Shown here: one piece after another, positions 1,059 to 18,560 of the stretch
How the letters are laid out: the number at the start of each line of letters is the position of its first letter
Numbering within the stretch: the first letter of the stretch is position 1
Origin: an uncultured archaeon
GTDB taxonomy: Archaea > Asgardarchaeota > Heimdallarchaeia > Heimdallarchaeales > Kariarchaeaceae
Direction of reading: 5' to 3'
DNA: 32,584 bases
NCBI GenBank assembly: GCA_964645535.1
Contig: CAZYCQ010000012.1
Location: forward strand, 31,521 to 64,104
The notes under the pieces: generated by a model
What the model saw: the letters and a program-made list of their open reading frames with translations, nothing else
Databases searched by the model: none
Told to the model about the DNA's origin: nothing
Position numbers and translations under genes: made by a program

Positions 1059-3008
1059 ATGATAAATGCAAATGGAAGCTCATCAATCTTGGATATCGAT
1101 TTCCACGATACCAGTGAGATCAGTGTTCCACCGAAACTAATTGACCAAGTCTTGGGTCAGGATAAAGCTGTCAGAATAATTCGGAAGGCTGCCCTTCAAG
1201 GAAGACACGTCATGCTCATCGGGGAACCTGGCACTGGTAAGTCCCTCTTAGGTGCTGCGACAGCCGAACTTCTCCCAAAGGATACTTTGGAAGACATTCT
1301 CGTCGTAGCGAATCCAAAAAATCCCAATAATCCTCGAATAATTACTTTACCTTCAGGAGAAGGGAGGGCAAGGGTTGAAATTGCTCAAGAAAGAGCAAGA
1401 AAGCAGGAAAGCACAAAAAACCTCATTGCAATCCTTATACCTCTTTCTTTGATTTTTCTCTTTGGTTTATTGTCTGGATGGGAGGTCAATGCGCTCATAT
1501 GGGCCACTTTGGTTGCCCTGTTCGCCTTCATGGTACTGAATAGTGTACGAGGGAGGAGTGAATTCTTAGTTCCCAAAATCCTTGTGGATACCTCGCAATC
1601 AGATACCGCACCATTTGTTGATGCAACTGGTGCCCATAGTGGTGCGCTTTTGGGAGATGTCCGACATGACCCCTTCCAATCAGGAGGGTTGGGAACGCCT
1701 GCTCATGAACGAGTTGAAGTAGGTCTTATCCATAAGGCCAACAAAGGTATTCTCTATATTGATGAAGTGGGGACTTTGAATATCAAGACTCAACAGAAAC
1801 TTTTGACTGCCCTTCAAGAAAAGAAATTCCCTATCACCGGACAAAGTGAACTCTCTTCTGGTGCAATGGTTCGTACTGAACCAGTTCCTTGTAACTTCAT
1901 TTTGATTGCCGCGGGCAACCAAGAAACGATAAGGAACCTACATCCTGCTTTGAGGTCCCGGATCCGAGGACAGGGTTACGAAATCGTCATGGAAACAACC
2001 ATGGAAGACAATATGGCAAATAGGAGAAAACTTGCCCGTTTTGTCTCTCAAGAAGTTGCAAAAGACCATAAGATTCCTCATTTCACGAAGGCTGCTGTCG
2101 AGCAGGTCATTTTTGAAGCTCAGAGGAGAGCCGGAAGGCCCAATTCACTCACTCTTCTGCTGAGGGATCTTGGTGGTCTGGTAAGGACCGCTGGAGATTT
2201 GGCGGTAGAACGTGGCCATGCCTTGGTGACTGCACAGGACGTTCTTGATGCACGACACCTTGCAGTAACATTGGAAAACCAACTCAGCCTCCAACTCCTT
2301 GAAGCAAGAAAAGACTACGAACTTTTCGAGGTCAATAAGGGTATGGTTGGGCGAGTCAATGGGTTGGCAGTCTACGGAAACAGTGCTGGTTCCGTCATGC
2401 CAATTGAAGCAGCTATCACTCCTGCTTCCATGATTGGCGCTGGAAGAATCTATGCGACAGGTCAACTCAGAGTTATTGCTAGAGAATCCGTCCAGAACAT
2501 TTCTGCATTGGTCAAGACTTATCTAGGAAAGGACATTGCAAATCACGACATTCATATTCAATTCGTTGGAGTCCATGGTGTGGATGGAGATTCAGCTTCA
2601 ATCACTATCGCCACCGCCATAGTGTCGGCCATTGAAGACGCTCCCGTCAGACAAGATACCGCAATGACAGGATCTCTTAGTGTCCGAGGTCAAGTTCTTC
2701 CAATTGGAGGTGTGACCTACAAAGCTGAAGCTGCTGCAAGAGTGGGTATCAAACGGGTCATTATTCCACATCAGAACCTCAAGGACTTGAAGCTTGATCC
2801 ACAGTTTGCTGACAAGCTCGAAATCATCCCAGTCAAATCATTTGATGAGGTTCTGCGTGCTGCATTAATCCCTGAATATAGTTATGTTGCAGACAAGTTT
2901 GCGACCAAATACAATAAAACTGAAAAGAAGCCAATCAATCCACCTGAAGAGGATGATTTGGTTATTGTCAAGGGAAGCAAAGAAAATCATTCCGTTCCCA
3001 CAGCCTAA
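1059..3008 (+). CDS. lonB: Archaeal ATP-dependent protease LonB (membrane-anchored)
   Basis: N-terminal IDQVLGQ, Walker A GEPGTGKS, two TM helices inserted in the AAA+ domain, GALLGDVRHDPFQSGGLGTP, Walker B LYIDE, catalytic Ser in DGDSAS and Lys in IGGVTYK. TATA-like TTTTTAAG at 1019-1026. Confidence 0.97.
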   Translation: MINANGSSSILDIDFHDTSEISVPPKLIDQVLGQDKAVRIIRKAALQGRHVMLIGEPGTGKSLLGAATAELLPKDTLEDILVVANPKNPNNPRIITLPSGEGRARVEIAQERARKQESTKNLIAILIPLSLIFLFGLLSGWEVNALIWATLVALFAFMVLNSVRGRSEFLVPKILVDTSQSDTAPFVDATGAHSGALLGDVRHDPFQSGGLGTPAHERVEVGLIHKANKGILYIDEVGTLNIKTQQKLLTALQEKKFPITGQSELSSGAMVRTEPVPCNFILIAAGNQETIRNLHPALRSRIRGQGYEIVMETTMEDNMANRRKLARFVSQEVAKDHKIPHFTKAAVEQVIFEAQRRAGRPNSLTLLLRDLGGLVRTAGDLAVERGHALVTAQDVLDARHLAVTLENQLSLQLLEARKDYELFEVNKGMVGRVNGLAVYGNSAGSVMPIEAAITPASMIGAGRIYATGQLRVIARESVQNISALVKTYLGKDIANHDIHIQFVGVHGVDGDSASITIATAIVSAIEDAPVRQDTAMTGSLSVRGQVLPIGGVTYKAEAAARVGIKRVIIPHQNLKDLKLDPQFADKLEIIPVKSFDEVLRAALIPEYSYVADKFATKYNKTEKKPINPPEEDDLVIVKGSKENHSVPTA

Positions 3009-3011
3009 AAT

Positions 3012-3365
3012 ATGCCTCTTTTTGAGGTAATGTGCATGGCCGCATCCGGTTACTATCGGCAAACTGAACTTTTTTTCACATATCTTATCGAAGGTGAAGA
3101 AGACATTGACTTTGCAGAGCTTGATTTACGCGCTCATGACCTGATTGGGGATCTTAACGCAATAGAACCCAATAGGGATGTAAGTTTTGAGCTTGATTAT
3201 CTAGGTGTTGGAGGTGAGGCCGAGTTTCTCTTTGGATTCAAGAGGGCATGGGATGATCGAGAAAGCGATCTTCTGGATTATCTTGATGAAGTGCAGAAAA
3301 CCATTGAGAATGGTCTCCCTGTCATCGTTTCGGAAAGGCAGACCATCAGCATTGTTCCCGTCTGA
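3012..3365 (+). CDS. Small acidic hypothetical protein, possibly ferredoxin-like (beta-alpha-beta-beta-alpha-beta) fold; true start may be ATG 3030 or 3036
   Basis: Starts 3 nt after the lonB stop. GAGGT SD-like motif at about 3024-3028 precedes ATG 3036. Natural-looking amphipathic pattern, strongly acidic. Confidence 0.7.
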   Translation: MPLFEVMCMAASGYYRQTELFFTYLIEGEEDIDFAELDLRAHDLIGDLNAIEPNRDVSFELDYLGVGGEAEFLFGFKRAWDDRESDLLDYLDEVQKTIENGLPVIVSERQTISIVPV

Positions 3366-3406
3366 TCCCTCTGAGAGAGAAAACCGAAAGTATTTTTTCA
3401 TCCGAG

Positions 3407-3414
3407 TTTAAATA
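3407..3414 (+). promoter_or_regulatory. Putative archaeal TATA box (TTTAAATA) for the zinc-ribbon gene and its leader
   Basis: Matches the archaeal TATA consensus in the 3366-3534 intergenic region. It would place the TSS near 3435-3440, just 5' of the structured leader. Confidence 0.5.
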
Positions 3415-3441
3415 CCCAATTCACCAGTAAGAAACAGTGGC

Positions 3442-3529
3442 TCACTGAGAGTGACTTCACCGAAAGTATTCCGCCCCGCACAAATTCCCGATGTATATCC
3501 TACCACGGGGCGAATACTTCGGAAGGTGA
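3442..3529 (+). ncRNA. Putative structured 5' leader / cis-regulatory RNA
   Basis: Small hairpin TCACT-GAG-AGTGA (3442-3454). Long imperfect stem CCGAAAGTATTCCGCCCCG (3460-3478) pairs with CGGGGCGAATACTTCGG (3506-3522). TCACC (3457-3461) is complementary to the SD-like GGTGA (3525-3529). Confidence 0.5.
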
Positions 3530-3534
3530 TTATC

Positions 3535-3774
3535 ATGAAAGAAAAAATAATGTCCGAAACCCAACAGTTCTCTCCTTCTTTTGAAGAAGTTCTCAAAACG
3601 GTTCTCGAAATCCTGGAAATGAATCTCGAAGAAAATGGCATTCATCCATGCTTCAGTTCTCCCATCGAGGTGGATGATCCCTGCAAAAATTGCGGAAACA
3701 ATTTCATCACAGAACTTTATGCACTTGGTGCTTTTGCCTGTCTTGAATGTGGAAGATTACTTGAGAGTCAATAA
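3535..3774 (+). CDS. Small protein with C-terminal TFIIB/TFB-type zinc ribbon
   Basis: ATG 3535 is preceded by AGGTGA (alternative ATG 3550). CKNC-x15-CLECG has TFB zinc-ribbon spacing. N-terminal acidic amphipathic helix FEEVLKTVLEILE. Confidence 0.7.
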   Translation: MKEKIMSETQQFSPSFEEVLKTVLEILEMNLEENGIHPCFSSPIEVDDPCKNCGNNFITELYALGAFACLECGRLLESQ

Positions 3775-5169
3775 TGCTTCTTTTTTCATCATCTTTCCCA
3801 AATCAAAAATGCTTTCAATGGCAAGTAGTTCACCAAGTTCCTTGTTTGTACTCAGGATATCCTTGTCCGATAATTGGGTGATCGAATATTTTCCAAGTGA
3901 CGCAGTAAGCAACTGTGTCTCAACCTTAATTCCTTCAATGAAATTTCTGATTAGATGTATGGATTGCTTCGATGGCTTTCTTATTTTTGAAACTAGTTCT
4001 CCGATGAGCTTATTTCTGTACATTTCTTTTCCGATGTAATGTTCCGCAAATCGAAAGCTGTAACCTGCGATCAGGAAAGGTCTTCCCATTGCAATTCCGT
4101 CGAGTCCCAAAGCTCTTGTTTTAACGACATCACTTCCTGTAGTCATTCTTCCCGAGAGGACAACACTTACTCGCGGGTTCCGTTCCTTAAAGCGCTTGGC
4201 AATGGCCGCACATACGACTGTTGGAAGGCCGACATGTTGTAGTGCTACCGACGGGCTCATTCCTGTTCCTCCTTCTTTGCCGTCAATGGTAACACAATCA
4301 ATTGCAGCGATTTCCGCAATTTCCAGAACTCTTTCCAAATCACGATAAGGTCCGGTTTTCAACCAGATTCTTGCTCTAGGATAATCATTCTTGAGTTTCA
4401 ATAACCTGTTTTTCAAAATTTCTTCTGTGAAGATATCTGGTGCTGAATGCCTTTCATAAAATTCCTGTTCTACCTCAAGTGGATCTGGATGGATGTAATA
4501 TGTCTCCCGCATTTCCAAGGCTTTTTTCCTGTCAATTATTTTTTCTCCTCCCATCCCCGCCTTTGCACCTTGACCTGCCTTGACCTCGAATGCGATGAGT
4601 CCTTCCTCAAAGTATTGTTTAAAATCGGGATCGGAATAAATTTTGTTCCACAACTCATTAGCCGCATCTTCTTCATTCTGTTGTATGACAACACCACCTG
4701 TGCCTCGAAAGCTATCAAAGTATGCTAGTATTCGTTCTTTCAGGGATGGCTGTTTGGGATCTTTGCGAACATCATATCCCCATGTCGCTGCGACGTTTTC
4801 CCCTATTCCATAAATAATTCCTTCGGCAGCACATGCCCTAGCTGCAAAAGGTGCCAATCTGTTCCATACCTCTGGACTTCCCATGGATGCTTGAATCAGT
4901 GGGATTGATGTTCTAAACCCACCTATCTCACATGAAAGGTCTACATCAAAGAAAACAGGTTCCCTCACCAGCAATTCAATGGCCTTTTCCAACCGCAGAG
5001 GTGTGAACTGGGGTGGAATTATCAGAATATCATCCAAGGTCGGAAACCTTGTGGTAATTTTTGTGATGTCTGCTCCCATGATCGAAAGGCGAGATGTGTC
5101 TGATTGTTTTGGATAGATCATTCTTCTGCCATGGCGGGCTCGTTCGATAATTGATCTGTACGGATACAT
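3757..5169 (-). CDS. FMN-binding glutamate synthase (GltB domain 2)-like TIM-barrel oxidoreductase
   Basis: Motifs QASMGS, IGENV, EVKAGQGAKAGMGG, RHSAPD, VTIDGKEGGTG, HVGLP, SGRMTTGSDVVKTRALG and MGRPFL. Likely start is ATG 5169 (MYPYR) with a GGTGAT SD-like motif just after the asnA stop; the ORF track extends to 5244. Confidence 0.85.
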   Translation of the reverse strand: MYPYRSIIERARHGRRMIYPKQSDTSRLSIMGADITKITTRFPTLDDILIIPPQFTPLRLEKAIELLVREPVFFDVDLSCEIGGFRTSIPLIQASMGSPEVWNRLAPFAARACAAEGIIYGIGENVAATWGYDVRKDPKQPSLKERILAYFDSFRGTGGVVIQQNEEDAANELWNKIYSDPDFKQYFEEGLIAFEVKAGQGAKAGMGGEKIIDRKKALEMRETYYIHPDPLEVEQEFYERHSAPDIFTEEILKNRLLKLKNDYPRARIWLKTGPYRDLERVLEIAEIAAIDCVTIDGKEGGTGMSPSVALQHVGLPTVVCAAIAKRFKERNPRVSVVLSGRMTTGSDVVKTRALGLDGIAMGRPFLIAGYSFRFAEHYIGKEMYRNKLIGELVSKIRKPSKQSIHLIRNFIEGIKVETQLLTASLGKYSITQLSDKDILSTNKELGELLAIESIFDLGKMMKKEALLTLK

Positions 5170-5177
5170 ACCATCAC

Positions 5178-6296
5178 CTATGGGGTAAACATACCTGGAA
5201 TCCTTGGATACGGGAGCGTCATATAGATGGACGGAAGTCCACAAAAATAGCGGACTGTTCTTTCAAGACCAATTCCAAATCCCGCTGTAGGTTTTCCATG
5301 TCGTTTGAGAAATTCGAGATACCATTGGTATTTCTGGAGACTTTCTCCACTTTCCTTCATCCTTGGAATTACTTTTCTGACATCATATTCTCTAGCGGCA
5401 CCGGAGATTGCTTCCCCATAGCCGAAGGGAAAAATCAGATCAAAATCCATAAGATATCCTGGTTTATCTGGATACTCACGATCATAGAATCCTCGTGCGC
5501 CCTTTGGATAATCATGGATGAAAAACGGTTCTTCATGGAGTGTGGAAATCAACCACTCATATTCCCATGGGATTTCTGCCTTGGGTTGGATGTTTTTTGG
5601 TTTAATTCCAAAAACCTCCCTGATTTTTTGAACAATTTCCGGATTTTCATCTAGTTTTGTCTGAAGCAACTCAACGATATCGGCATGAGTATACCGTTTG
5701 AATTTTCCTTTGATTTTTGGGACTTCCTTGAATGGGATCAGTCCCCTTTCTTCCCCTTTGTCCCCAAAGTGTTTCCAAATGGGTTGTAACAGCTCTTCAT
5801 GTTGAGCCATTGTTTGATGAAGGTATGTCACCAATCCTTCAGCAACGTCCATTGCCACGAAATGGTCAGCATCCACTATTTCTAGGTCAACCTGAACAAA
5901 TTCCACAAGATGCCTATCCGTGCTTGCAGTTTCAATAGGTTCAAGCCTCAAGTTATCTGCAAAGAAGAATATTTTCCCGTCTTTTCCTGCCATCTGTCTT
6001 GAAATGCTGAGAAGTTGCTTATACAAGATTGCACTGCTCATGAATTTGTATGTTGTCCCATAAAATCCAATTTCTACCTGTTTTGCACCTCTGATGCCTG
6101 GATCTGTGACTGGGCCAATCAATGGCGGTTTGAATTCAAGAAATCCTTCTTTTCGAAGATAATCCCTCATATATTGACTGATGAGGTCATAAGCTTCGAA
6201 TATCTTCTGAATAACTGGTTTTCCGATTGCCTGTCCAATATCTTCTTGGATTGATGCAAGGTGGTCTTTTTGAGTGTTATTCTGAAGTGTTTCCAT
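5178..6296 (-). CDS. asnA: Archaeal ammonia-dependent asparagine synthetase A (AsnRS/AspRS catalytic-domain paralog lacking the anticodon OB domain)
   Basis: Class II aaRS motifs: GFLEFKPPLIGPVTDPG (motif 1), LRLE...RHLVEFVQVDLE (motif 2) and AGFGIGLER (motif 3). Also MSSAILYKQ and GEAISGAARE. No N-terminal OB fold. Confidence 0.85.
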   Translation of the reverse strand: METLQNNTQKDHLASIQEDIGQAIGKPVIQKIFEAYDLISQYMRDYLRKEGFLEFKPPLIGPVTDPGIRGAKQVEIGFYGTTYKFMSSAILYKQLLSISRQMAGKDGKIFFFADNLRLEPIETASTDRHLVEFVQVDLEIVDADHFVAMDVAEGLVTYLHQTMAQHEELLQPIWKHFGDKGEERGLIPFKEVPKIKGKFKRYTHADIVELLQTKLDENPEIVQKIREVFGIKPKNIQPKAEIPWEYEWLISTLHEEPFFIHDYPKGARGFYDREYPDKPGYLMDFDLIFPFGYGEAISGAAREYDVRKVIPRMKESGESLQKYQWYLEFLKRHGKPTAGFGIGLERTVRYFCGLPSIYMTLPYPRIPGMFTP

Positions 6297-6375
6297 ATTT
6301 CCCTATTTTCATTGATAAATTTAAATGTTTTCTAATATTGTGTTTATTAATTTGTATTATGTCTATAATTGATCA

Positions 6376-6395
6376 TAAAAATTGGAAAATTTCCA
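6376..6395 (-). terminator. Inverted repeat plus T-run just downstream of cdc6 (possible terminator or operator)
   Basis: TGGAAA-A-TTTCCA at 6383-6395 is a perfect inverted repeat. On the minus strand it lies 5 nt after the cdc6 stop and is followed by ATTTTT. Confidence 0.35.
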
Positions 6396-6400
6396 GATCT

Positions 6401-7603
6401 CTATGCCCTGATTTTCTTTTTGATTGCTTCTTCTACCCGTTCCTTGACAATAATTGCAGGAATGTCATGGAGGGTGATAATTGATCTTCTCCCTCTCGAT
6501 CCATCTGGCATGGGTTTTACCTGTGTAACCACTATTCCCAATTGGGCAAGGTTATCCAAATAGATCCGAAATGTTGCCTTCGATTGTCCTTTTAGCTGAT
6601 ATGTCTCACAGTACATTTTATAGACTTGATATGCTTCATTAATTGTTGTTTGAACAACTCCTCCACCTTTTGAAAGAATCGTTGCAATGGAAAGGGCAAC
6701 CACCAGTTCATTAATCTTCAGATCATTAAACACATCCGGTCGGAGTTCAGGATAGACTTCATTTTTTGCTGCCCTGACAAATTCCGGAGTAATTATGGAT
6801 GACTTTTTGGCGTTGGCAATCATGCCGCATCGAAGCATAATTTCAATTCCATGTCTAGCATTTCCTGTTGTGGCAGCAATGTCCACAATCATGTCCAAAA
6901 CCTCGTCACTAATGACCCCCGCATAGAAGCCCAATTGTGCACGATATCTGAGGATGGTCTCCAATTGTTCCCGAGTGTATTTGGGCATATTGATCTGATC
7001 TTGCACTCTACCCGACAAATGCGTATTGAGCATTAACGACCACTGTTGTCTGCGGGTTATGATAATTATTGAGACCCTTCCTTCACCCGGAGGGAACAAT
7101 TCATTCATGTGAATCAATCCAAGAATATCTTCTCCCCTAAGCATCCCTGCTTCGTCAATTGTTAACACGATCCGTTTATTTTCCCTTGAAAGTTTCTTTG
7201 CAAGCATTTCCATCATTTCCTCATCGCTGAAACCTCTTCCTTGGACATTTGTGAAACCGTCTGTCACAAGTCTTCTAAGTATTGATGTCTTAGTTCTGAA
7301 AGAATGGCAGTTGACATATTGGGTATCCAAGTTGATGTTCAATGATTCAGCATAACTTTTCAAATCCTTGGTGATCCTTTTGGCCAAAGTGGTCTTACCA
7401 ACGCCTGCTGGACCAATGATGGCAATGTTTACTGCTACTGGTCGGAACGGATCCAATAGAATGGAAAGAGCTTCAACCATTCTCGTTTGTTCATCTTCCC
7501 TTCCCGGCATCTCATCAGGAACAAATTCTGGAGTTAGTGTAAAGCGATCCTTGAAAACCGAATCAGTTGAGTATTTCTCGAATAGGTTCGTCAATACTTC
7601 CAA
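6401..7603 (-). CDS. cdc6: Cdc6/Orc1 replication initiator
   Basis: N-terminal FVPDEMPGREDE, Walker A GPAGVGKTT, YVNC, Walker B LTIDEA, YTREQLETILRYR, sensor-2 GNARHGIEIM, and a C-terminal winged helix (YLDNLAQLGIV...GSRGRRS). Confidence 0.96.
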   Translation of the reverse strand: MEVLTNLFEKYSTDSVFKDRFTLTPEFVPDEMPGREDEQTRMVEALSILLDPFRPVAVNIAIIGPAGVGKTTLAKRITKDLKSYAESLNINLDTQYVNCHSFRTKTSILRRLVTDGFTNVQGRGFSDEEMMEMLAKKLSRENKRIVLTIDEAGMLRGEDILGLIHMNELFPPGEGRVSIIIITRRQQWSLMLNTHLSGRVQDQINMPKYTREQLETILRYRAQLGFYAGVISDEVLDMIVDIAATTGNARHGIEIMLRCGMIANAKKSSIITPEFVRAAKNEVYPELRPDVFNDLKINELVVALSIATILSKGGGVVQTTINEAYQVYKMYCETYQLKGQSKATFRIYLDNLAQLGIVVTQVKPMPDGSRGRRSIITLHDIPAIIVKERVEEAIKKKIRA

Positions 7604-7693
7604 TAGGTCAAACGAAAATAAAAAGTAATTGGAGAGATGATTAAAAGTGAATTAAAATTGAATTAAATTTGTGTCTTTGGGGGTTGACTGATG

Positions 7694-8644
7694 TTATTTT
7701 TCATTTTCGTAACTCCTGATGTTTTTGCCCACTTTTTCATAAGGGATGGTAAAGGTGAACCCATCAAAGGTAAACAAGGTCTTTGTAATGGCATTTGCCA
7801 ACTGCTTTTCTTTCTTGAAGTTCAACAATTGAGGTCCAATATGTGTCAGAAGTGTAATATCTGCTCTTGCCAACTTGCCTATGGTTGCAGCATCCTTGAC
7901 GGTTGAATGCTCCCTTTCTTGACCTACAAGCTCTTCGTCTGAAGGATATGTGGCCTCATGAATCAAAACATCGCATCCTTTGGCAAACTCCGCAAGTTCC
8001 GGATTGAACTTTGTATCTCCAGAATATACAATTGATCTTCCCTCACGTTCTGGGCCTATGATGTCTTCAGGTCTTACGACAGTTCCATTCTCAAGGACAA
8101 TTGGTTTTCCCAACTTCAGGCTTTTCCGTTCTTTGTTTGGCACATTATATTTATCTAGGATCTCCGCATTCCATTTTCCAGGATATGGGTCTTCCTGCCA
8201 TCTAAAGGAGAGTGCATTATTGAAATGCAATGCTTTCATGGTCAAAAGAGTGTATCCTTTACCCTTGAATTTTTCACCCGGTGAAAGGGTGATCACTTCC
8301 AAAGGATAATCAACTCTTACTTGAAGAGCGACAAGGAGCATTTCAAGGATTTTCTCGAATTTTGGTGGTCCAATGACGGTAACTTTCTCCTTTCTATCCA
8401 AAAGGTTAAGGGATGCAAGAAGTCCTCCAATTCCTTGATAATGGTCGGGATGATTGTGGCTGATGGCAATGGTGATTTCCTTCCTTATGGGAACCTTGAA
8501 TTTTCTGAGGTTGTATTGGGCTCCTTCTCCCACATCAAAAAAAAACACTCCATTTTTGTGCCTAACTGCAATCGAAGATTGAAATCTATTCACTGGGGGT
8601 ATCGCTGCTCCAGTCCCTAGAAACGTAATTATAATGTCATTCAT
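7694..8644 (-). CDS. rnz: Ribonuclease Z (tRNA 3' processing, metallo-beta-lactamase fold)
   Basis: FLGTGAAIP, FDVGEG, SHNHPDH (HxHxDH), exosite segment, YSGDT, DVLIHEATY, HST and LTH motifs. Confidence 0.95.
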   Translation of the reverse strand: MNDIIITFLGTGAAIPPVNRFQSSIAVRHKNGVFFFDVGEGAQYNLRKFKVPIRKEITIAISHNHPDHYQGIGGLLASLNLLDRKEKVTVIGPPKFEKILEMLLVALQVRVDYPLEVITLSPGEKFKGKGYTLLTMKALHFNNALSFRWQEDPYPGKWNAEILDKYNVPNKERKSLKLGKPIVLENGTVVRPEDIIGPEREGRSIVYSGDTKFNPELAEFAKGCDVLIHEATYPSDEELVGQEREHSTVKDAATIGKLARADITLLTHIGPQLLNFKKEKQLANAITKTLFTFDGFTFTIPYEKVGKNIRSYENEK

Positions 8645-9647
8645 TTGATATCAACCTTACTCTCCGAGTCAAATTCTTATGGACGTAAGAATCTGCTTCC
8701 ATTAATATTTTCCATTGTTTCGGCAACTCTGGAAGAAGGTTGTTGGGTAATGCGAAGGCAAGTTCCACCTTTTCGTGGACATTTTTTAACCATTCATGAA
8801 CCAATTGGGCAGGCTGTCGTCCTGAGGTGGTTGTCTGAATTGCATATGGTGGATCGCAGACCATTTTCCTGAAGCTTCCTTTTCTGAATGGAAGGTGAAA
8901 GGCATCTCCCATGACAAGTTGGGCAATCTGATCATACCCAATATGCTTAAAATTCTCTTGCGCTTGGCGGACGATCCTCCTATCTAGCTCAATGCCAACG
9001 GGAGAAGCTTCAATATCGACTAATTCCAATAATAGTCCACCATGGCCGCAGAATGGATCTAAAACCCATTCCCCTGGTTCAGGAATTACTAAATTAGCCA
9101 TCATGCGTGCAAAAACTGGCTTCATTGCGCCTCCACGAAAATGAGGAAGGTTTTTCGGTGCTTTCCAGTTGTAATCCTTTCCTTTTTGTACCATTAGCAA
9201 TTCTGCCAGGATAATTCCTCCTTCCCACAACACGATATGGATGGATATGGCCGGGTTTTTCAAATCCACCTTCCAGCCTGGGTTTCTCATTAAAAAGGCA
9301 CTTCCCACCTCTTTTTCAATTTCTGATGTTTTTAGTTCTTCAAAGCATGGTTTATCTAATCTCTTTGCTTTAACGGCAAAGGTCTTTTTTTTTGGATGTT
9401 GATCGAATTTCTCCAATGCAATCCCTATTTTGTCTATATCATAGGTCTTCCATTCTTCATGAACCCTGAACACTAACCTAGCTGCTCCACTTTTTCTAGC
9501 CTTTTTGAGAATGGCATTGAGGTTTCCCTCAACTGTGAAAATATGGTTGTTTTTCCATCTTATCTTGTCCCCGAACAACCTTATGGTTTCGTTCCTTGCC
9601 AAAGAGGGATGCTCTTGGGATAGGCTTACTAGGAATAGCTCCATCAA
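8637..9647 (-). CDS. trm11: THUMP-domain tRNA (guanine-10, N2) methyltransferase, Trm11/TrmG10 family
   Basis: THUMP (TFAVKAKR...VDLKNP), AMKPVFARMMANL, VLDPFCGHGG and DPPY motifs. Overlaps the rnz start by 8 nt. Confidence 0.88.
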   Translation of the reverse strand: MMELFLVSLSQEHPSLARNETIRLFGDKIRWKNNHIFTVEGNLNAILKKARKSGAARLVFRVHEEWKTYDIDKIGIALEKFDQHPKKKTFAVKAKRLDKPCFEELKTSEIEKEVGSAFLMRNPGWKVDLKNPAISIHIVLWEGGIILAELLMVQKGKDYNWKAPKNLPHFRGGAMKPVFARMMANLVIPEPGEWVLDPFCGHGGLLLELVDIEASPVGIELDRRIVRQAQENFKHIGYDQIAQLVMGDAFHLPFRKGSFRKMVCDPPYAIQTTTSGRQPAQLVHEWLKNVHEKVELAFALPNNLLPELPKQWKILMEADSYVHKNLTRRVRLISNE

Positions 9648-10685: not shown

Positions 10686-11765
10686 GTGTTAACTGATCTT
10701 GCTCACACCTATCCAGAAGAAGACAAAAGAGGCAAATTTCTCTTGGATCTTGGTCGTTATCTGCAAACCCTTTCAGAGGATGATATAGTATTCGCCACAC
10801 ATGCTCATTGTACTGACGGAATGGTTGCCGCCTCCATGATACGTTATGCTTTTCCCCATGCCAAAATAGTTCCGATTGGGTATTGGTTTCTCAATGATCC
10901 TCTAGCTTCTTCACTCAAAAAGATCAAATATACAGGAATTATCGACCTTGCGCCATTCAATGAGCTTCCCACAGAATTTTGGGTAGATCACCATCTTTCT
11001 GCAATGAACAACCGAATCAATGCAAAAAAGATTAGATTTGATGTTGACGGAGATTCAGGATCATATCAACTTCTTCTAAGTGGTTTCCTTCCTGAGCTTC
11101 CTGATTATCTCATTGAGCTGGCAGTTCTGACTAGAATAACGGACACGGCAAGCTATACCATACTTCCCCCTTATGAACCAGAAGAATCATTTACTGAACT
11201 TCTCCAATATCCTTTTTCTTATATCGATGACCTATCTAAGGTTGAACTTCAAATCCAGCGAAAGGCTTACCTTCTTGATGATGCAGTGGCTACCTCCTTT
11301 GATTTTTGGGAGTGGCAGAATCTTGTAAATGAATTTGCATCTTCTGGATTTAACGCAATTTCCAATAGACTGGACAAGATCAAAGAAATACGAGATGGAA
11401 GAAAGGTTGCCTTCAATATGGTAAAGGAAATGCCTATTTCTGATTTCGTAGCATTCATTGTTCCAGACGAAAAATATGATGTTTTTGCAATTCGCAGGTA
11501 TCTTTTGGCAAAAGGGCCTAAAGCAGTCGTTTCCCTTACGGAAGGGCATAATGGCTATCGCATCTCGTTAAGAAGAGCAAAAAATCTTTCTCCGGAATTT
11601 TCTTCCAAAATCCAATTGAACCAACTTGCAGAACAATTGAATGGTGGAGGACATGCAGCCGCATCTGGAGGCTTTTCTAAAGATTTGGAATATGCAATTG
11701 ATACCATGCGAAATTGGGCTGAGGAAAAAGGACTTAAATTTATCCAAATTGATTTGAGAGGCTAA
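10686..11765 (+). CDS. DHH/DHHA1 family phosphoesterase (NrnA/oligoribonuclease-like)
   Basis: THAHCTDG (motif I), IIDL (II), WVDHH (III), ITDT (IV), ISLR and GGGHAAASGG (DHHA1). All catalytic motifs are intact. Confidence 0.88.
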   Translation: MLTDLAHTYPEEDKRGKFLLDLGRYLQTLSEDDIVFATHAHCTDGMVAASMIRYAFPHAKIVPIGYWFLNDPLASSLKKIKYTGIIDLAPFNELPTEFWVDHHLSAMNNRINAKKIRFDVDGDSGSYQLLLSGFLPELPDYLIELAVLTRITDTASYTILPPYEPEESFTELLQYPFSYIDDLSKVELQIQRKAYLLDDAVATSFDFWEWQNLVNEFASSGFNAISNRLDKIKEIRDGRKVAFNMVKEMPISDFVAFIVPDEKYDVFAIRRYLLAKGPKAVVSLTEGHNGYRISLRRAKNLSPEFSSKIQLNQLAEQLNGGGHAAASGGFSKDLEYAIDTMRNWAEEKGLKFIQIDLRG

Positions 11766-11823
11766 TTTCAAAAAAACTTGCCCTGAGCCAAAAGGGATTA
11801 AAACCCCCTGTAAACGTGTCATT

Positions 11824-13473
11824 GTGGATTCTTCCTCGGTTATCGATCTAATAACAAAAAACCAACAGTCTCTGACTTTCAAACCCTCTGTTTCCGCCAT
11901 TTTCTATAAGATGCTTGGCTTGACATTAGGGATATTTTTTATTTTCTCTAGTTTAGTTGTTGGCTTTCTTTTCCAAACACCTCAATACGCCCAATTTTTC
12001 TTCAAAGAAGGTATTTCTTTCCTTTTTTTGGGAATCTTCAGTTTTCTTGCAAGCTTTCGTTTCTTTCGACTTCCATTTGGGAGCTTGTCTATTACTCCTG
12101 AGGGAATTATCTACCGGAAGGCATTAATCAAGAACATTTATTTTCCTTTTGAGGAATTGAAACTTGTTGAAGTAACTGAAAACTCGTCTGTTTTCTCCTT
12201 TCTTTTAGGTACCAGATATGAGATCAATATATTTACCTTGAACCATTCACTCTCCCTTAGCTCGCGGTACTTCACAAATGGTGCCAAACTACAAGAAATT
12301 GCGTCTTTATTGAGCATATTCTATGATGATTCCCTGATCCGATTTTTCACCAAAAGGAAGCGCCAACCTATATTCCGGAAATTGATTACAGATCCCGGCG
12401 GGTTTGTAGGATTTGCTTTAATGCTTGTCATTCTGTTCTTTTATTTGTGGGGAGCGTTTTCCCATATTGTTTTCCCTCCCTTTAATTTCTCAGTTCCCAA
12501 GGCCGGCATTCTCAAAAATCCTACCTATCAATTTGCTTTCGATGACCGATATCGCGAACTTGCTATTGATCGCCCTCCAGATTCTGAATTCTGGTTTGGT
12601 ACCGATTTCGTTGGAAGGGACATTTTTTCAAGGTTGGTTTATTCAACATTCTATACAATTACAGTTGTATTCATAGGTGCCCTAATCCCGACAGTTATTG
12701 GTTCATCTCTGGGTATTCTTTCAGGGTTCTTTGGAGGGCCAACAGATAAAGTTCTCCAATCCTTGGCGGATTCGCTTATGCTGATCCCTCCTTTTGCTTT
12801 GTGGATGTTTGCAATAGCCCTTCCAAGGGATCTGTTCAAATTCGACCTTTTTGGGAACCCTCAATTGCATTTTGAATATACACTTCCTGGTGCATTTTAT
12901 TTTCAGGCCTTTGTCATTTTAGGAGGACTTTATTGGGCTATGCCATTTCGGGTGGTACGACAAGAGGTTCTATCAATAAAGGAGGAAGAGTTTGTTCAAG
13001 TGCAATTCGTTCTTGGATCTTCAAATTTTCGGATACTTCGCAAACATATCATTCCCAATCTCCTCCCTCCGATTATTATTATGCTTCTGACATTATTCAT
13101 TGAATTCATTGTGGTGGCCGTTTCAATCTCCATCGCAATAGGGCTTGAAGGGGATCTTATTTGGGGCTCTGACATTAGTAGACGATTGGATCCGGGCTAC
13201 TATAAGCAGACTTTGGAAGACTATTTCCTTTTATGGTCGACCTTATGGATCGGTACAACCATTTTCGGGCTCTCCCTCTTTACGGATGCCTTAAAGGATG
13301 CCTTGGATCCGACAGCACGAACCTTTGAACCTGAAAACATCAAGAAAATTCCTCCTGCCGAGCTTAACGATGAAGAACGGATCATTCTTTCCAAGGCGGT
13401 TGAGATGGTGTTAAAGGGGGAAAAACTTGTTTCATTGACTGATCCTTTACTTATGGAGGTGACCGAAAAATGA
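11824..13473 (+). CDS. Oligopeptide/nickel-type ABC permease (OppC/DppC family) fused to an N-terminal 2TM + PH-like domain
   Basis: FWFGTDFVGRDIFSRL, EAA-like loop EEEFVQVQFVLGSSNFRILRKHIIPN and DALKDALDP. It carries an extra ~180 aa N-terminal region with LSITPEGIIYR...FPFEELKLVEV. Confidence 0.85.
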   Translation: MDSSSVIDLITKNQQSLTFKPSVSAIFYKMLGLTLGIFFIFSSLVVGFLFQTPQYAQFFFKEGISFLFLGIFSFLASFRFFRLPFGSLSITPEGIIYRKALIKNIYFPFEELKLVEVTENSSVFSFLLGTRYEINIFTLNHSLSLSSRYFTNGAKLQEIASLLSIFYDDSLIRFFTKRKRQPIFRKLITDPGGFVGFALMLVILFFYLWGAFSHIVFPPFNFSVPKAGILKNPTYQFAFDDRYRELAIDRPPDSEFWFGTDFVGRDIFSRLVYSTFYTITVVFIGALIPTVIGSSLGILSGFFGGPTDKVLQSLADSLMLIPPFALWMFAIALPRDLFKFDLFGNPQLHFEYTLPGAFYFQAFVILGGLYWAMPFRVVRQEVLSIKEEEFVQVQFVLGSSNFRILRKHIIPNLLPPIIIMLLTLFIEFIVVAVSISIAIGLEGDLIWGSDISRRLDPGYYKQTLEDYFLLWSTLWIGTTIFGLSLFTDALKDALDPTARTFEPENIKKIPPAELNDEERIILSKAVEMVLKGEKLVSLTDPLLMEVTEK

Positions 13474-15323: not shown

Positions 15324-17420
15324 ATGCGAAGAAGATGCACTACTTGTGATGGCAAAGGCTATATCGAGCACGTAACGACATGTGATAAATGTGGAGGGTT
15401 TGGCACTACCAAATTCACCGAGGGTCCTGGTTCAAAGAACGAGAAAAGTGCCAAATGCCCCGAATGTAATGGTGCTGGGAAATTCATAGAAAAAGAAATC
15501 TGTCCAGATGATTGCGATAATGGTTATCTTTACTACTGCGATTTCTGTGGAAAAGAAATTGGTGAAAACGACGATAACGTCTGTGAAACCTGCAAAGAAG
15601 ATCCATATGTGATCCGATTCATCAGACCAATTGCCAAGGAATATCTTAACCAAAAAAGAGCTGTCGCAGCTGTGGTTACAAAAGTAGATCGTGATACGGT
15701 TCATGTTGATCTCGGAGCTGGTCTTAAGGGTCGTTTCAAGACAGGTCAATCAAGAATCTTCCGACCTGGACAACTGTTGCCCGTTCAAATCAAGAAACAA
15801 GTTGATCCCAACAAAGATTGGCTTTACTATGTCGTTCCGGTCAGACAGAAAAACTTCAAAATCAAAGTTGTTCATGCTGAGGTTCCACCTCGATCTATTG
15901 CAGAGTTCAAAGCAAAGGGTGTTGATCATGTTACTGGGAAGTTCATTGGCCAAATTGTCCACGTCAAACGGTTGAGAAAGGGACCTTCATTCTTTACTCT
16001 ATTGGATTCTTCTGGTGAAACGATTGTTGGAACAGCATTTGGCATGGGTGGACGCCCAGCCTATCCAAAATATGACCGGGGTGCAATTGTTGAGGTTATT
16101 GGGGAGATGACTCTTTACAAGGGTCAAGAGAGATTTTCAATTCACTCATTCAAGCCAGTTCCTTACGAAGAAAGGCAAAAACTCTATCGAGAACTTGCTG
16201 AAGTGGTTTTGAGGAAGAACAAAAAGATACAGGATCTTGAACTTTCTGTCCAGACAGAGAATTTCAAAAAATTCGAAGGCGAAATCAAAGAAGCTGCGGT
16301 TATGATACGTGAGGCAATCATCTCTGGAAGAAACGTCATGCTAAAGTATAACTCATCAAGCGTTGATTCCACGGTTGCAGCATATTCCCTTGATTTTGCA
16401 CTTAGGGGATTTCTCCGTTCCAGAGGAAAGAAAGCAAGTGAATTCCGCCACTTCATTCGAAGAATGCCTTTGAAGGGCAATGTATATGAGACTGCAGATA
16501 TCATGAGGGATGTCTCTTTCATCTTGGACGGTCCTGTTCCCGGTGACAGAATGCCTTTGGTAGTTCTTCTGAACGCAGGCTTTTCGAAGGAATCACTTCC
16601 TGCATATGCTTTTGCAGAAATCTACGACCTTCCTGTTATCTCGGTGTCTCATTTGGGTTCCGATCCTGAAGTCAGAGAAAAGGTGCATCTCGTGGGTGCA
16701 GAGAATAGAGTTCACGAAACAAACATTTCAGTTTCTATGCTTGCTTATGAAATTTCCCGATTTGTCTTGGCTGAATATGATTTCAATTTCCAATACCTAC
16801 CCCTCATTGGAGCAACACATACTCGTGCCGAAGGAGAAGAATATGCAAAATACCTTGAAATGCTTAATGCCAACGAAGAGGCAATTATGGATGAAACCGG
16901 GGTCAAGACAGCAGCTACCGCATTGGAATATGTTCTGTTCGGTTTGAGGTTCAGTGATGGTGGCGAAACAATCAGGGATCTACTAGGTATTGGAAGACGA
17001 CGTGAAAGTGGTCTTGATTTAGCAAAATCATTGGCAACCTTGGCAAATGAGACTACAGAAACGGCCGTCAAGGTGATCAAGGAATATGCAACCGTTGAAG
17101 AGATAGGGTCATTGAATGTCCATTTCCTTGACTTGGAGAAATATGCCCCGCGTTTTGAATTCCCATCTCATGGCGGTTTGGTAACTGCATTCCATGATAC
17201 CTTGGAAGGTGAGGCAATGACTGTCGGTGTCGGATATGACTATCTGATTCTACGTATTTCAAGTGAAAATCTTGATTTCGACAAGATCCTCCAAGGTCTC
17301 AAAGAAAAGCTACCCAATGCCATGATCCAAGGGGGCGGCTATGAATCCGTCGGAAGCATAAAATTCTTACATGGTCTCCAAAGCGAAGTTCTGACCGCTC
17401 TTAAGGAATTGATCGCTTAG
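15324..17420 (+). CDS. Archaea-specific RecJ-like protein (COG1107: DnaJ-type Zn finger, S1/OB folds, DHH/DHHA1), catalytic motifs degenerate
   Basis: CxxCxGxG repeats (CTTCDGKG, CDKCGGFG, CPECNGAG), an S1-like domain, OB fold with TAFGMGGRPAYP, and C-terminal IQGGGYESVGSIKF. AAGGAG SD upstream. Confidence 0.88.
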   Translation: MRRRCTTCDGKGYIEHVTTCDKCGGFGTTKFTEGPGSKNEKSAKCPECNGAGKFIEKEICPDDCDNGYLYYCDFCGKEIGENDDNVCETCKEDPYVIRFIRPIAKEYLNQKRAVAAVVTKVDRDTVHVDLGAGLKGRFKTGQSRIFRPGQLLPVQIKKQVDPNKDWLYYVVPVRQKNFKIKVVHAEVPPRSIAEFKAKGVDHVTGKFIGQIVHVKRLRKGPSFFTLLDSSGETIVGTAFGMGGRPAYPKYDRGAIVEVIGEMTLYKGQERFSIHSFKPVPYEERQKLYRELAEVVLRKNKKIQDLELSVQTENFKKFEGEIKEAAVMIREAIISGRNVMLKYNSSSVDSTVAAYSLDFALRGFLRSRGKKASEFRHFIRRMPLKGNVYETADIMRDVSFILDGPVPGDRMPLVVLLNAGFSKESLPAYAFAEIYDLPVISVSHLGSDPEVREKVHLVGAENRVHETNISVSMLAYEISRFVLAEYDFNFQYLPLIGATHTRAEGEEYAKYLEMLNANEEAIMDETGVKTAATALEYVLFGLRFSDGGETIRDLLGIGRRRESGLDLAKSLATLANETTETAVKVIKEYATVEEIGSLNVHFLDLEKYAPRFEFPSHGGLVTAFHDTLEGEAMTVGVGYDYLILRISSENLDFDKILQGLKEKLPNAMIQGGGYESVGSIKFLHGLQSEVLTALKELIA

Positions 17421-17481
17421 TCTCTCTTTTCCTCATTCAATAATTGGTAAACTATAATAATCCCTGATTTTTAACATCGAT

Positions 17482-17994
17482 GTGGTCAACTATTTCACAG
17501 AACTTGTCTATGGATTCATTTTCATGATGCCTGCGTTTTGGGCAAATGCAGTTCCCGTTTTTGTTGGTGGATTGGGTCCTATAGACAGAGGGATAATGTT
17601 TTTTGATGGAAAGCCGCTCCTTGGAAAGAACAAAACAATAGGTGGCTTACTCGCTGCTGTCATTGCAGGAGGAATGGCAGGAATAGCGTTGTACTTTTTC
17701 TTTCCCAAAATTTGGGAACCTTTCCCAATTTGGATGGGATTTCTACAAGGATTTGGCGCTATGGTGGGAGATGCCTTCGGATCGTTCTTGAAACGAAGAA
17801 TCAACCTTAAACCCGGTGGACCGTTCCCAATAATGGATCAAATCGGTTTTATCATTTTTGCTTTTCTTTTTGTTGCTCCTTTTGTAGGGCTCAATATTAC
17901 TTGGTTTGTTCTTGTTTCCCTCACTGCTCTGGTTCTGCATCTTGTTGCAAACATTTTTGCATATAAGATGGGTTGGAAGGACGTTTGGTGGTGA
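17482..17994 (+). CDS. carS: CDP-archaeol synthase (CDP-2,3-bis-O-geranylgeranyl-sn-glycerol synthase, DUF46)
   Basis: PAFWANAVPV, GPID, DGKPLLGKNKT, GDAFGSFLKRR, PIMDQ and C-terminal AYKMGWKDVWW, in a multi-TM protein. Confidence 0.93.
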   Translation: MVNYFTELVYGFIFMMPAFWANAVPVFVGGLGPIDRGIMFFDGKPLLGKNKTIGGLLAAVIAGGMAGIALYFFFPKIWEPFPIWMGFLQGFGAMVGDAFGSFLKRRINLKPGGPFPIMDQIGFIIFAFLFVAPFVGLNITWFVLVSLTALVLHLVANIFAYKMGWKDVWW

Positions 17995-18002
17995 ATATTT
18001 CA

Positions 18003-18560
18003 TCAGGCCAAATCATGAGAATAAAGAATTGTGTGTTTAGCTCCCTGCGGGAAAAGATCGGATTTGTAAAAGTTTATGGTTTGAATCTCAATTTCCTTGA
18101 AAATATCGAAATCGAGCCATTTTGCAACTAGTTTACTCGGATTCCCCCTACGAATTCTAGCAACCGTCAAATGGGGGATGAATTTATTCTTCTTTTTGAA
18201 TTTGACGCCTTCCAATGTTTCAGTTATCTGATGATATAGCTCAGCCATCTTCTCATTGCCCTCTTCATCAAGTCCAAGAAATAGTACCCTTGCCGAGTTT
18301 GGTTTGTTTGGTGGGAAATAGTTAGGAACTGCAATTCTTACCTTAAATTTGGGAAAGGAAACTCTGGATATTGCCTCGATTATTATCTTTTGCTTCATTT
18401 GAGGAATGTTACCAAAGAAATGTGTGGTAATATGATAAGATTCCGGTCTTGTAATTGAAATTTTTATGTTTTCTTTGAGATTTTCAGAAGAAAGAAATTC
18501 TGCTGCTTCCTTGAAAGGGGGAAATGGGATCGCTATGAAACATCTGTCCAACTTATCCAT
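18003..18560 (-). CDS. thpR: RNA 2',3'-cyclic phosphodiesterase / 2'-5' RNA ligase (2H family)
   Basis: N-terminal RCFIAI, two HxT motifs (YHITTHFFG and FIPHLTVAR), ARVLFLG and YKSDL...GAKH. Confidence 0.92.
   Translation of the reverse strand: MDKLDRCFIAIPFPPFKEAAEFLSSENLKENIKISITRPESYHITTHFFGNIPQMKQKIIIEAISRVSFPKFKVRIAVPNYFPPNKPNSARVLFLGLDEEGNEKMAELYHQITETLEGVKFKKKNKFIPHLTVARIRRGNPSKLVAKWLDFDIFKEIEIQTINFYKSDLFPQGAKHTILYSHDLA

Follow-up and report, generated by a model that had tools for sequence, protein, structure and literature searches.

The 169-nt stretch located directly upstream of a gene for a 79-aa zinc-ribbon protein, in the heimdallarchaeial DNA studied here (the window, 32,584 nt in full), raises the question of whether its repeated motif works in RNA or in DNA. 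The preliminary description had favored an RNA switch occluding the Shine-Dalgarno (SD) sequence and had named DNA operator sites as the alternative. This alternative was supported by the finding of dispersed boxes positioned at promoters. Based on the sequence comparisons reported below, the region would probably be the promoter of a mini TFB-type zinc-ribbon gene, with two DNA operator boxes and a genus-specific hairpin in the 5' untranslated region (5' UTR).

The elements that had been described are present in the sequence, namely the two direct copies of the motif, the two CTGAGAG, the mini-hairpins, the TATA box, and the SD (Table 1). The inverted copy (AATACTTCGG, the reverse complement of CCGAAGTATT) was also found, but it is one A short of the box and has no conserved equivalent in relatives.

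Table 1. Features of the zinc-ribbon gene leader and its surroundings in the window, and of the DNA-repair cluster on contig C83 of the same genome (locus L080).
Feature	Position	Strand	From predicted TSS (3436)	Remarks
LonB gene	1059-3008			Upstream flank
117-aa ORF	3012-3365			Directly 3' of lonB
Mini-hairpin CTCT-GAG-AGAG	3369-3379
CTGAGAG, two copies	3371-3377; 3445-3451
Box 1	3373..3395	-	about -63..-41	Plus-strand sequence GAGAGAGAAAA-CCGAAAGTATTT; ACTTTC hexamer and Sulfolobus-like orientation on the minus strand; TATA 11-12 nt downstream
Direct copies, ACCGAAAGTATT	3383-3394; 3459-3470
T6 run	3393..3398	+		Right after box 1 core
BRE-like CCGAG, then TATA box TTTAAATA	3402..3414 (TATA 3407-3414)	+	TATA about -29..-22
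Predicted TSS	3436..3437	+		A/G of conserved c/AGTGG, 21-22 nt past TATA
Small 5'-terminal hairpin TCACT-GAG-AGTGA	3442..3454	+		Predicted; overlaps purine-rich half of box 2
Box 2	3447..3471	-	about +12..+36	Plus-strand sequence GAGAGTGACTTCA-CCGAAAGTATTC; initially transcribed region
Long stem, 5' arm	3460..3478	+		Overlaps box 2 core
Long stem, 3' arm	3506..3522	+		Includes imperfect inverted copy 3513-3522
Hairpin formed by the long stem			about +25..+87
SD-like AGGTGA	3524..3529	+	about +89	Outside the stem
Start codon ATG	3535	+	+100
79-aa protein gene	3535..3774	+		C-terminal TFB/TFIIB-type zinc ribbon
Convergent GltB-like gene, then AsnA-like gene				Downstream flank
Orc1/Cdc6 gene	6401-7603			2.9 kb away
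C83 DNA-repair cluster	4682-9259	-		Boxes at 5671 and 9329
C83 Rad51-like gene	4682-5653	-
C83 847-aa family-B polymerase	6008-8551	-		Motif A SLYPS; LTDS replaces catalytic DTDS
C83 232-aa protein	8561-9259	-		Sub-threshold Rad51 match

The purine-rich BRE side lies upstream of the TATA box, which suggests a rightward promoter. Its transcript would start at the A/G given in Table 1; in the four loci of genus g1 the spacing of this predicted start was the same and its sequence similar. The gene controlled by this promoter is most likely the zinc-ribbon gene, whose product matched Pfam Zn_Ribbon_TF with an E-value of 9.5e-5, below the gathering score. Box 1 reached a position weight matrix (PWM) score of 29.9 against a control maximum of 17.8, and box 2, with a score of 30.9, was the top site genome-wide. 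The T6 run could serve as an oligo-T terminator for the lonB/117-aa operon, whose end is at 3365, and T4-T5 runs occupy the equivalent place in genomes G002 and G001. Small hairpins analogous to the 5'-terminal one, with other sequences, occur in these two genomes. The acidic 117-aa ORF also has the same position in both, and it belongs to no Pfam family.

Orthologues of the zinc-ribbon protein were found in G001, G002, and G003 (the rest of genus g1), in G007 (genus g5), and on two metagenome contigs. The alignment revealed a common order in all seven orthologous loci (box 1, 11-13 nt, BRE/TATA, about 21 nt, start region, box 2). The cores of both boxes were invariant in the seven loci and 76-79 bp apart, and the BRE/TATA block, (C)AGGAG-TTTAWATA, was near-invariant, with the remaining sequence diverging. 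The AGTGG-like start region before box 2 was conserved in the four genus g1 loci. G003 and genus g5 have no lonB or 117-aa gene upstream, yet they keep box 1, and in g5 a divergent methyltransferase gene begins about 60 nt from it. Box 1 is therefore independent of a lonB read-through transcript, which speaks against the earlier proposal that the upstream copy competes for pairing on such a transcript. The distance from box 2 to the ATG was 75, 83, 91, 77, 37, and 31 nt across the orthologous leaders, with only 20-30 nt separating them in g5 and the metagenome loci. The leader lengths differ by non-multiples of three, and the leader is therefore non-coding. An N-terminal extension or uORF (GTG at 3451) was rejected on the same grounds, as the box 2-ATG distances conserve no frame.

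The box spans about 23 bp and reads GAGAGAG-N3-A-CCGAAAGTATTC, or GAATACTTTCGG-N-CTCTC on the opposite strand. The exact 12-mer core CCGAAAGTATTC occurred 32 times in 12 genomes of the window's family, against 0 for the reversed control, and 41 times against 5 in 12 genomes of a second family of the class (f7). The copies were nearly all intergenic in both families, and the box was found dispersed across the whole order plus a sister family. The logo showed that conservation reaches 11 nt upstream of the core (GAGAGAG-N3-A) and stops sharply past it. When the window's own genome was scanned with the PWM, about 9 sites scored above every control (both boxes of the window on C12, two sites on C132, and sites on C39, C55, C83, C31, and C35), and C83 carried a second, weaker site. 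The sites occur in both orientations relative to the neighboring genes, some of them with no same-strand gene downstream. Only the 12-23-nt box recurs between loci, the flanks being unrelated.

We have compared the folding potential around 47 box sites with that of shuffles and of the reverse complement. No excess folding was detected before or after the sites (mean z of -0.46, equal to that of the reverse complement), and we rejected the motif as an arm of a general RNA hairpin, given that surplus structure was missing on either side. The dispersal, the intergenic position, and the lack of a general hairpin would point to a site in the DNA that a protein binds rather than to an element of the RNA. 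Many dispersed genomic copies had been named beforehand as evidence against an RNA element; such copies exist for the box, whereas the whole 169-nt stretch is single-copy in the 3.6-Mb assembly. This last result also led us to discard a MITE or whole-element repeat. A CRISPR-like reading of the 76-77-bp periodicity was likewise abandoned, the units carrying a conserved TATA box and the triple seen in G006 having arisen by tandem duplication of one promoter unit. We also dismissed the motif as an alternative BRE/TATA or TFB-paralog site, since the 14-21 nt between its core and the TATA box are too many for contacts by the helix-turn-helix of TFB.

Several loci presented peculiar box arrangements. 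The G006 triple (L055, G006:C81, 780-1043) consists of three boxes with 76- and 77-bp spacing, generated by tandem duplication of the whole box/TATA/start-region/box unit. These boxes precede a gene for a 238-aa membrane protein with a C-terminal CxxC...C motif, and their start region (GATGGCTC...CTGAGAG) is similar to that of the window. In the same genome, a box pair with 74-bp spacing abuts the 3' end of a NAD synthase gene and has about 1 kb of AT-rich, ORF-free DNA upstream (L060, G006:C328, 500-1400). Two boxes 34 bp apart, each following its own perfect palindrome (GTGTCCCA-N-TGGGACAC-like), are located 13 nt upstream of a 495-aa ORF that gave no Pfam match (L099, G084:C95, 1440-1560). 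Finally, four f7 loci (L092, L094, L096, and L097, in G084 and G086) carry an exact box copy inside IS605/TnpB (Cas12f-like) elements, within the conserved element end, at 57 nt (L092, L094, and L096) or 115 nt (L097) upstream of a tnpB-type ORF, the short ORF of L092 having had no Pfam scan. This box may be a damage-linked transposon promoter.

The long GC stem, which had been described from the window, was the dominant predicted helix of the leader, with a minimum free energy (MFE) of -33 to -46 kcal/mol and z-scores of -2.6 to -3.0 against dinucleotide shuffles. MAFFT did not align the 3' arms in register, and the covariation of the stem was tested by a duplex-versus-shuffle comparison. In each of the four genus g1 genomes, a 13-nt segment starting in the core of box 2 can pair strongly with a complementary sequence downstream, with duplex energies of -14.7 to -17.0 kcal/mol versus about -6 to -7.5 with shuffled downstream sequence (P of 0.002-0.0035 per genome; Fisher combined P of about 1e-7). 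The arms differ between these genomes (CGCCCCG, CGCCC, CCCC, and CUGCCUUGG). Such differing arms represent compensatory change, and the hairpin is therefore under selection in genus g1, where its loops (26-43 nt) are not conserved. The covariation in homologous loci proposed as a check was thus found in the four genus g1 genomes, but the downstream stem is absent from the sister genus g5 and from the two metagenome loci. In these, the AAGUAUUC segment pairs instead with an upstream GGGAGUGCUU-like sequence. Both GAGUGCUU (upstream) and GAAUACUU (downstream) are complementary to AAGUAUUC, so that alternative pairings are possible, and all orthologous leaders were more stable than shuffles (z of -1.9 to -3.9).

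The function originally assigned to this stem, occlusion of the SD, was not supported. In relatives the stem stops 5-12 nt before the SD-like sequence, and the sister genus lacks it. The pairing of UCACC with GGUGA, which had also been described, does appear in the MFE structure of the window, but it is absent from the relatives. As judged from this comparison, the long GC stem is an element of its own, a 5'-UTR hairpin specific to the genus, and not an SD mask. An Rfam scan with permissive E-values returned as best hit an unrelated viral pseudoknot (E of 0.21, 19.9 bits versus a gathering score of 50), in agreement with the previous statement that the leader matches no known riboswitch. Scanning the element for tRNA/tmRNA with ARAGORN gave nothing. 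Readings by eye of CUGAGAG...CGAAAG as a hammerhead (CUGA...GAAA), K-turn, or C/D box were rejected, as the core nucleotides they need are missing from the orthologues.

The genes adjacent to the box were then considered. In the window's own genome, contig C83 carries one box directly upstream of a Rad51-like gene and a second directly upstream of an operon composed of the genes for a degenerate, RadA-like 232-aa protein and an 847-aa family-B polymerase. Among the other genomes, the box stands beside RadA in three genomes of two families (L029, L091, and L106), beside PolB (L041) and RadA-like paralogs, and beside genes for UvrA, a Rad50/SMC-like ATPase, and an RPA-like OB-fold protein. It also adjoins an SF2 helicase (three genomes) and a divergent TFB paralog (three families); the TFB paralog of the own genome retains a degenerate box at the equivalent place. 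Neighbors with non-repair or unknown functions were an M20 peptidase, DUF411, a CMD-family protein, a methyltransferase, and 431-aa and 631-aa proteins, for which PDB sequence searches were uninformative. No strong box was found in the own genome at the full-length RadA homologues, UvrA, RPA, or the helicase; regulon membership therefore varies between families. Two groups of leaders also share further sequence. The long leaders of L091 and L029 (RadA) and of L100 (RPA-like) have a second conserved element in common, GAAACCTAACGCGA, and the helicase leaders (L089 and L107) share another conserved block. Both are possible further regulatory elements.

This set of neighbors recalls the DNA-damage-response element (DDRE, 5'-A(N)TTTC-3') of Sulfolobales, which is bound by Orc1-2 (PMC6061795, PMC5817253, PMC12490963). 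In Saccharolobus islandicus, damage-responsive promoters share the consensus 5'-AATAGTTTCRGWDTACTCWS-3' at -23 to -55 from the ATG, which includes the Orc1-2-bound hexamer ANTTTC, and the Orc1-2 regulon of Sulfolobales includes tfb3, dpo2, and homologous-recombination genes (PMC6061795). In Sulfolobus acidocaldarius the hexamer, found before BRE/TATA at -44..-39, has the form ACTTTC at upsE and upsA (PMC5817253). The reverse-complement consensus of 57 Heimdall sites, AATACTTTCGGTTAACTCTC, agreed with AATAGTTTCRGWDTACTCWS at 18 of 20 positions, one of the mismatches being the N of ANTTTC. Single sites matched at 12-18 of the 20 positions, all in one register, and the agreement extended to positions outside the 12-mer that had served as search query. 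Random genomic 32-mers gave at least 17 matches in 5.5e-5 of trials. Both window boxes carry ACTTTC on the minus strand, and the hexamer was in the same register in 57/57 collected sites.

The placement of the box was also informative. At the RadA, UvrA, Rad50, RPA, helicase, and TFB-paralog promoters of relatives, it precedes the TATA box by 3-10 nt in the Sulfolobus orientation. About 14 sites lie 40-76 nt from the start codon, a distance in keeping with short-leader or leaderless genes. The window departs from this arrangement: box 1 precedes TATA in inverted orientation, and box 2 lies past the predicted transcription start. No ups or ced genes were present among the box neighbors examined. 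The likeness of the 20-bp consensus across phyla could reflect convergence.

By analogy with Sulfolobales, the three Orc1/Cdc6 paralogs of the own genome are the regulators to consider. One, encoded on a contig other than the window's, is clearly Orc1-1-like (335 bits to 2qby_A) and the other two are divergent; none of the three clearly belongs to the Orc1-2 (1w5s) clade, and none has a box upstream of its gene. A C50a-type Orc1 paralog was found 3-9 kb from the box-linked TFB paralog in three families, a proximity that makes this type the better candidate, as a lead. The paralog encoded in the window was rejected as the regulator: its gene has no box upstream, it shares synteny with the mini gene in G002 alone, and it has no clear orthologues in f7, where the box is abundant. 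On contig C50 (L081), an archaeal SRP RNA (3266-3581; Rfam RF01857, 99.8 bits) adjoins the divergent TFB paralog (11454-12485) with its degenerate box, and two Orc1/Cdc6 paralogs (8071-9348 and 17025-18236) lie within 10 kb.

Other explanations have to be weighed against a damage-related operator. The boxes might bind a transcription factor serving other purposes, such as general stress or the cell cycle, with a merely convergent likeness to the DDRE. Such a factor would account for the many neighbors that are not repair genes (M20 peptidase, DUF411, CMD-family, methyltransferase, and others) and for the full-length RadA homologues, UvrA, and RPA of the own genome standing without boxes, and the neighboring lonB may point to a stress response. 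We nevertheless consider it unlikely: the consensus match at 18/20 positions falls in one register, and random sequence reached 17 or more in 5.5e-5 of cases; RadA, Rad50, UvrA, RPA, helicase, PolB, and TFB variants recur beside the box in three families; and these neighbors mirror the Orc1-2 regulon of Sulfolobales.

An RNA switch, thermometer-like or dependent on read-through, would gate the SD through alternative structures built from the motif copies and the stem. The compensatory changes of the stem in four congeners, the folding of the orthologous leaders beyond shuffles, the UCACC/GGUGA pairing of the window, and the alternative pairings of AAGUAUUC with GAGUGCUU and GAAUACUU are all compatible with it. 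It becomes very improbable when one considers that box 1 lies upstream of the conserved TATA box and is kept where no co-directional gene is upstream, that the SD is outside the stem in relatives, and that g5 leaves just 20-30 nt between box 2 and the ATG. Moreover, the motif occurs at loci without a same-strand gene downstream, no general hairpin follows it, and Rfam yielded no match. Hardly credible, in our judgment, is a mobile or selfish repeat (a MITE or IS end) or an array of replication-origin ORB elements near the Orc1 gene, even if four f7 copies reside inside IS605/TnpB elements, the Orc1/Cdc6 gene of the window is 2.9 kb away, and ORB elements are likewise long, asymmetric, and flanked by G-strings. 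The copies share no more than the 12-23-nt box between unrelated flanks and are orthologously conserved at fixed promoter positions. The boxes form about 7 or more dispersed loci per genome, too many for origins; their copies are direct and not inverted around an AT-rich unwinding element, and a clear Orc1-1-type initiator is encoded on another contig. The origin reading was also rejected from the GC skew, which tracks gene orientation only.

The reading that we prefer is therefore that of a promoter with two operator boxes. The box would be the heimdallarchaeial counterpart of the Sulfolobales DDRE (A-N-TTTC), bound by a sequence-specific regulator that, by analogy, may be an Orc1/Cdc6 paralog. 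One regulator would act on both boxes and place the zinc-ribbon gene under common control with DNA-repair genes. Box 1 would work from where activator sites usually lie, activation being a guess, and box 2 might serve as a brake through repression or feedback, also a guess. DNA damage as the inducing signal and the sign of the control are guesses as well. In the RNA, the GC stem would sequester the 3' half of box 2 and not the SD, and would probably tune mRNA stability or translation. Several observations go against this explanation, among them the lack of strong boxes at the full-length repair genes of the own genome, the Orc1/Cdc6 genes with neither an upstream box nor a clear place in the Orc1-2 clade, and the greater distance of the hexamer from TATA than in Sulfolobus. 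The boxes of the window are inverted relative to the arrangement at repair genes, so their effect is not readable by analogy; in addition, the membership of repair genes differs between families and several neighbors are unrelated or of unknown function.

A broader scenario, drawn by analogy and to our mind nearer to doubtful than to probable, is that the Orc1-type damage circuit, not known outside Sulfolobales (asymmetric DDRE upstream of BRE/TATA, damage-controlled truncated TFB, PolB2-like polymerase, and recombination genes), is ancestral to TACK and Asgard archaea. An Orc1/Cdc6 paralog of Heimdallarchaeia would then read a homologous DDRE at RadA, Rad50, UvrA, RPA, helicase, PolB, and TFB variants, and the 79-aa protein, gated by the two boxes that bracket its promoter, would correspond to TFB3 in function. 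The box offers a concrete handle, being a 23-bp element with a defined consensus whose targets are dominated by DNA-repair and basal-transcription genes. It also provides a plausible link to the only genetically dissected archaeal DNA-damage network, that of Orc1-2/TFB3 in Sulfolobales. If this link is true, damage-responsive control by the ORC family would predate the TACK/Asgard split, which bears on the uses of ORC/Cdc6 proteins and TFIIB-like factors before eukaryotes. For the annotation of the locus, a candidate new riboswitch is removed and a promoter architecture put in its place.

Compared with known systems, the window resembles RNA thermometers and other SD-sequestering leaders in that a stable hairpin directly precedes the SD within a long 5' UTR. 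It differs from them in that the SD and the start codon lie outside the conserved helix, the structure is genus-specific, and the motif also occurs outside the transcript. The repetition of a short box at one promoter has a parallel in the aCcr1 boxes of Sulfolobus cell-division promoters, which include gar1-tfb2 and at which boxes near or after the TATA box repress (PMC9976878; bioRxiv 10.64898/2026.09.06.749720). These boxes are present in two or three copies, also at a TFB-paralog promoter, but their motif is unrelated, their regulator is an RHH protein, and their regulon concerns the cell cycle and not repair.

The TFB3 of Sulfolobales is a damage-induced truncated TFB, and the study describing it found truncated TFBs only in Crenarchaeota (PMC6101594). 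The 79-aa protein is likewise very short, combines a four-cysteine TFB-type zinc ribbon with a helical segment, and has a promoter with DDRE-like boxes. Its domain order is reversed relative to TFB3, with the helix first and the ribbon last, and it is likened to TFB3 as a possible functional analogue.

The closest parallel is the Sulfolobales DDRE itself. Literature searches combining Orc1-2 with Asgard, or using the motif string, retrieved no description of the box, the motif string giving only primers. The box would be best filed as a DDRE-like operator in a new phylum, with no earlier description found. It differs from its Sulfolobales counterpart by its occurrence in an Asgard phylum, by a longer core (12 nt invariant, about 23 nt in total), by a hexamer lying about 10 bp, or one helical turn, further from TATA, and, at the window locus, by two inverted boxes bracketing the promoter. 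The two elements are alike in being non-palindromic, in containing ACTTTC, and in sharing 18 of 20 consensus positions. At repair-gene promoters, both immediately precede BRE/TATA and share one orientation, and both are linked to a truncated or variant TFB, to a PolB with a degenerate catalytic motif, and to recombination genes.
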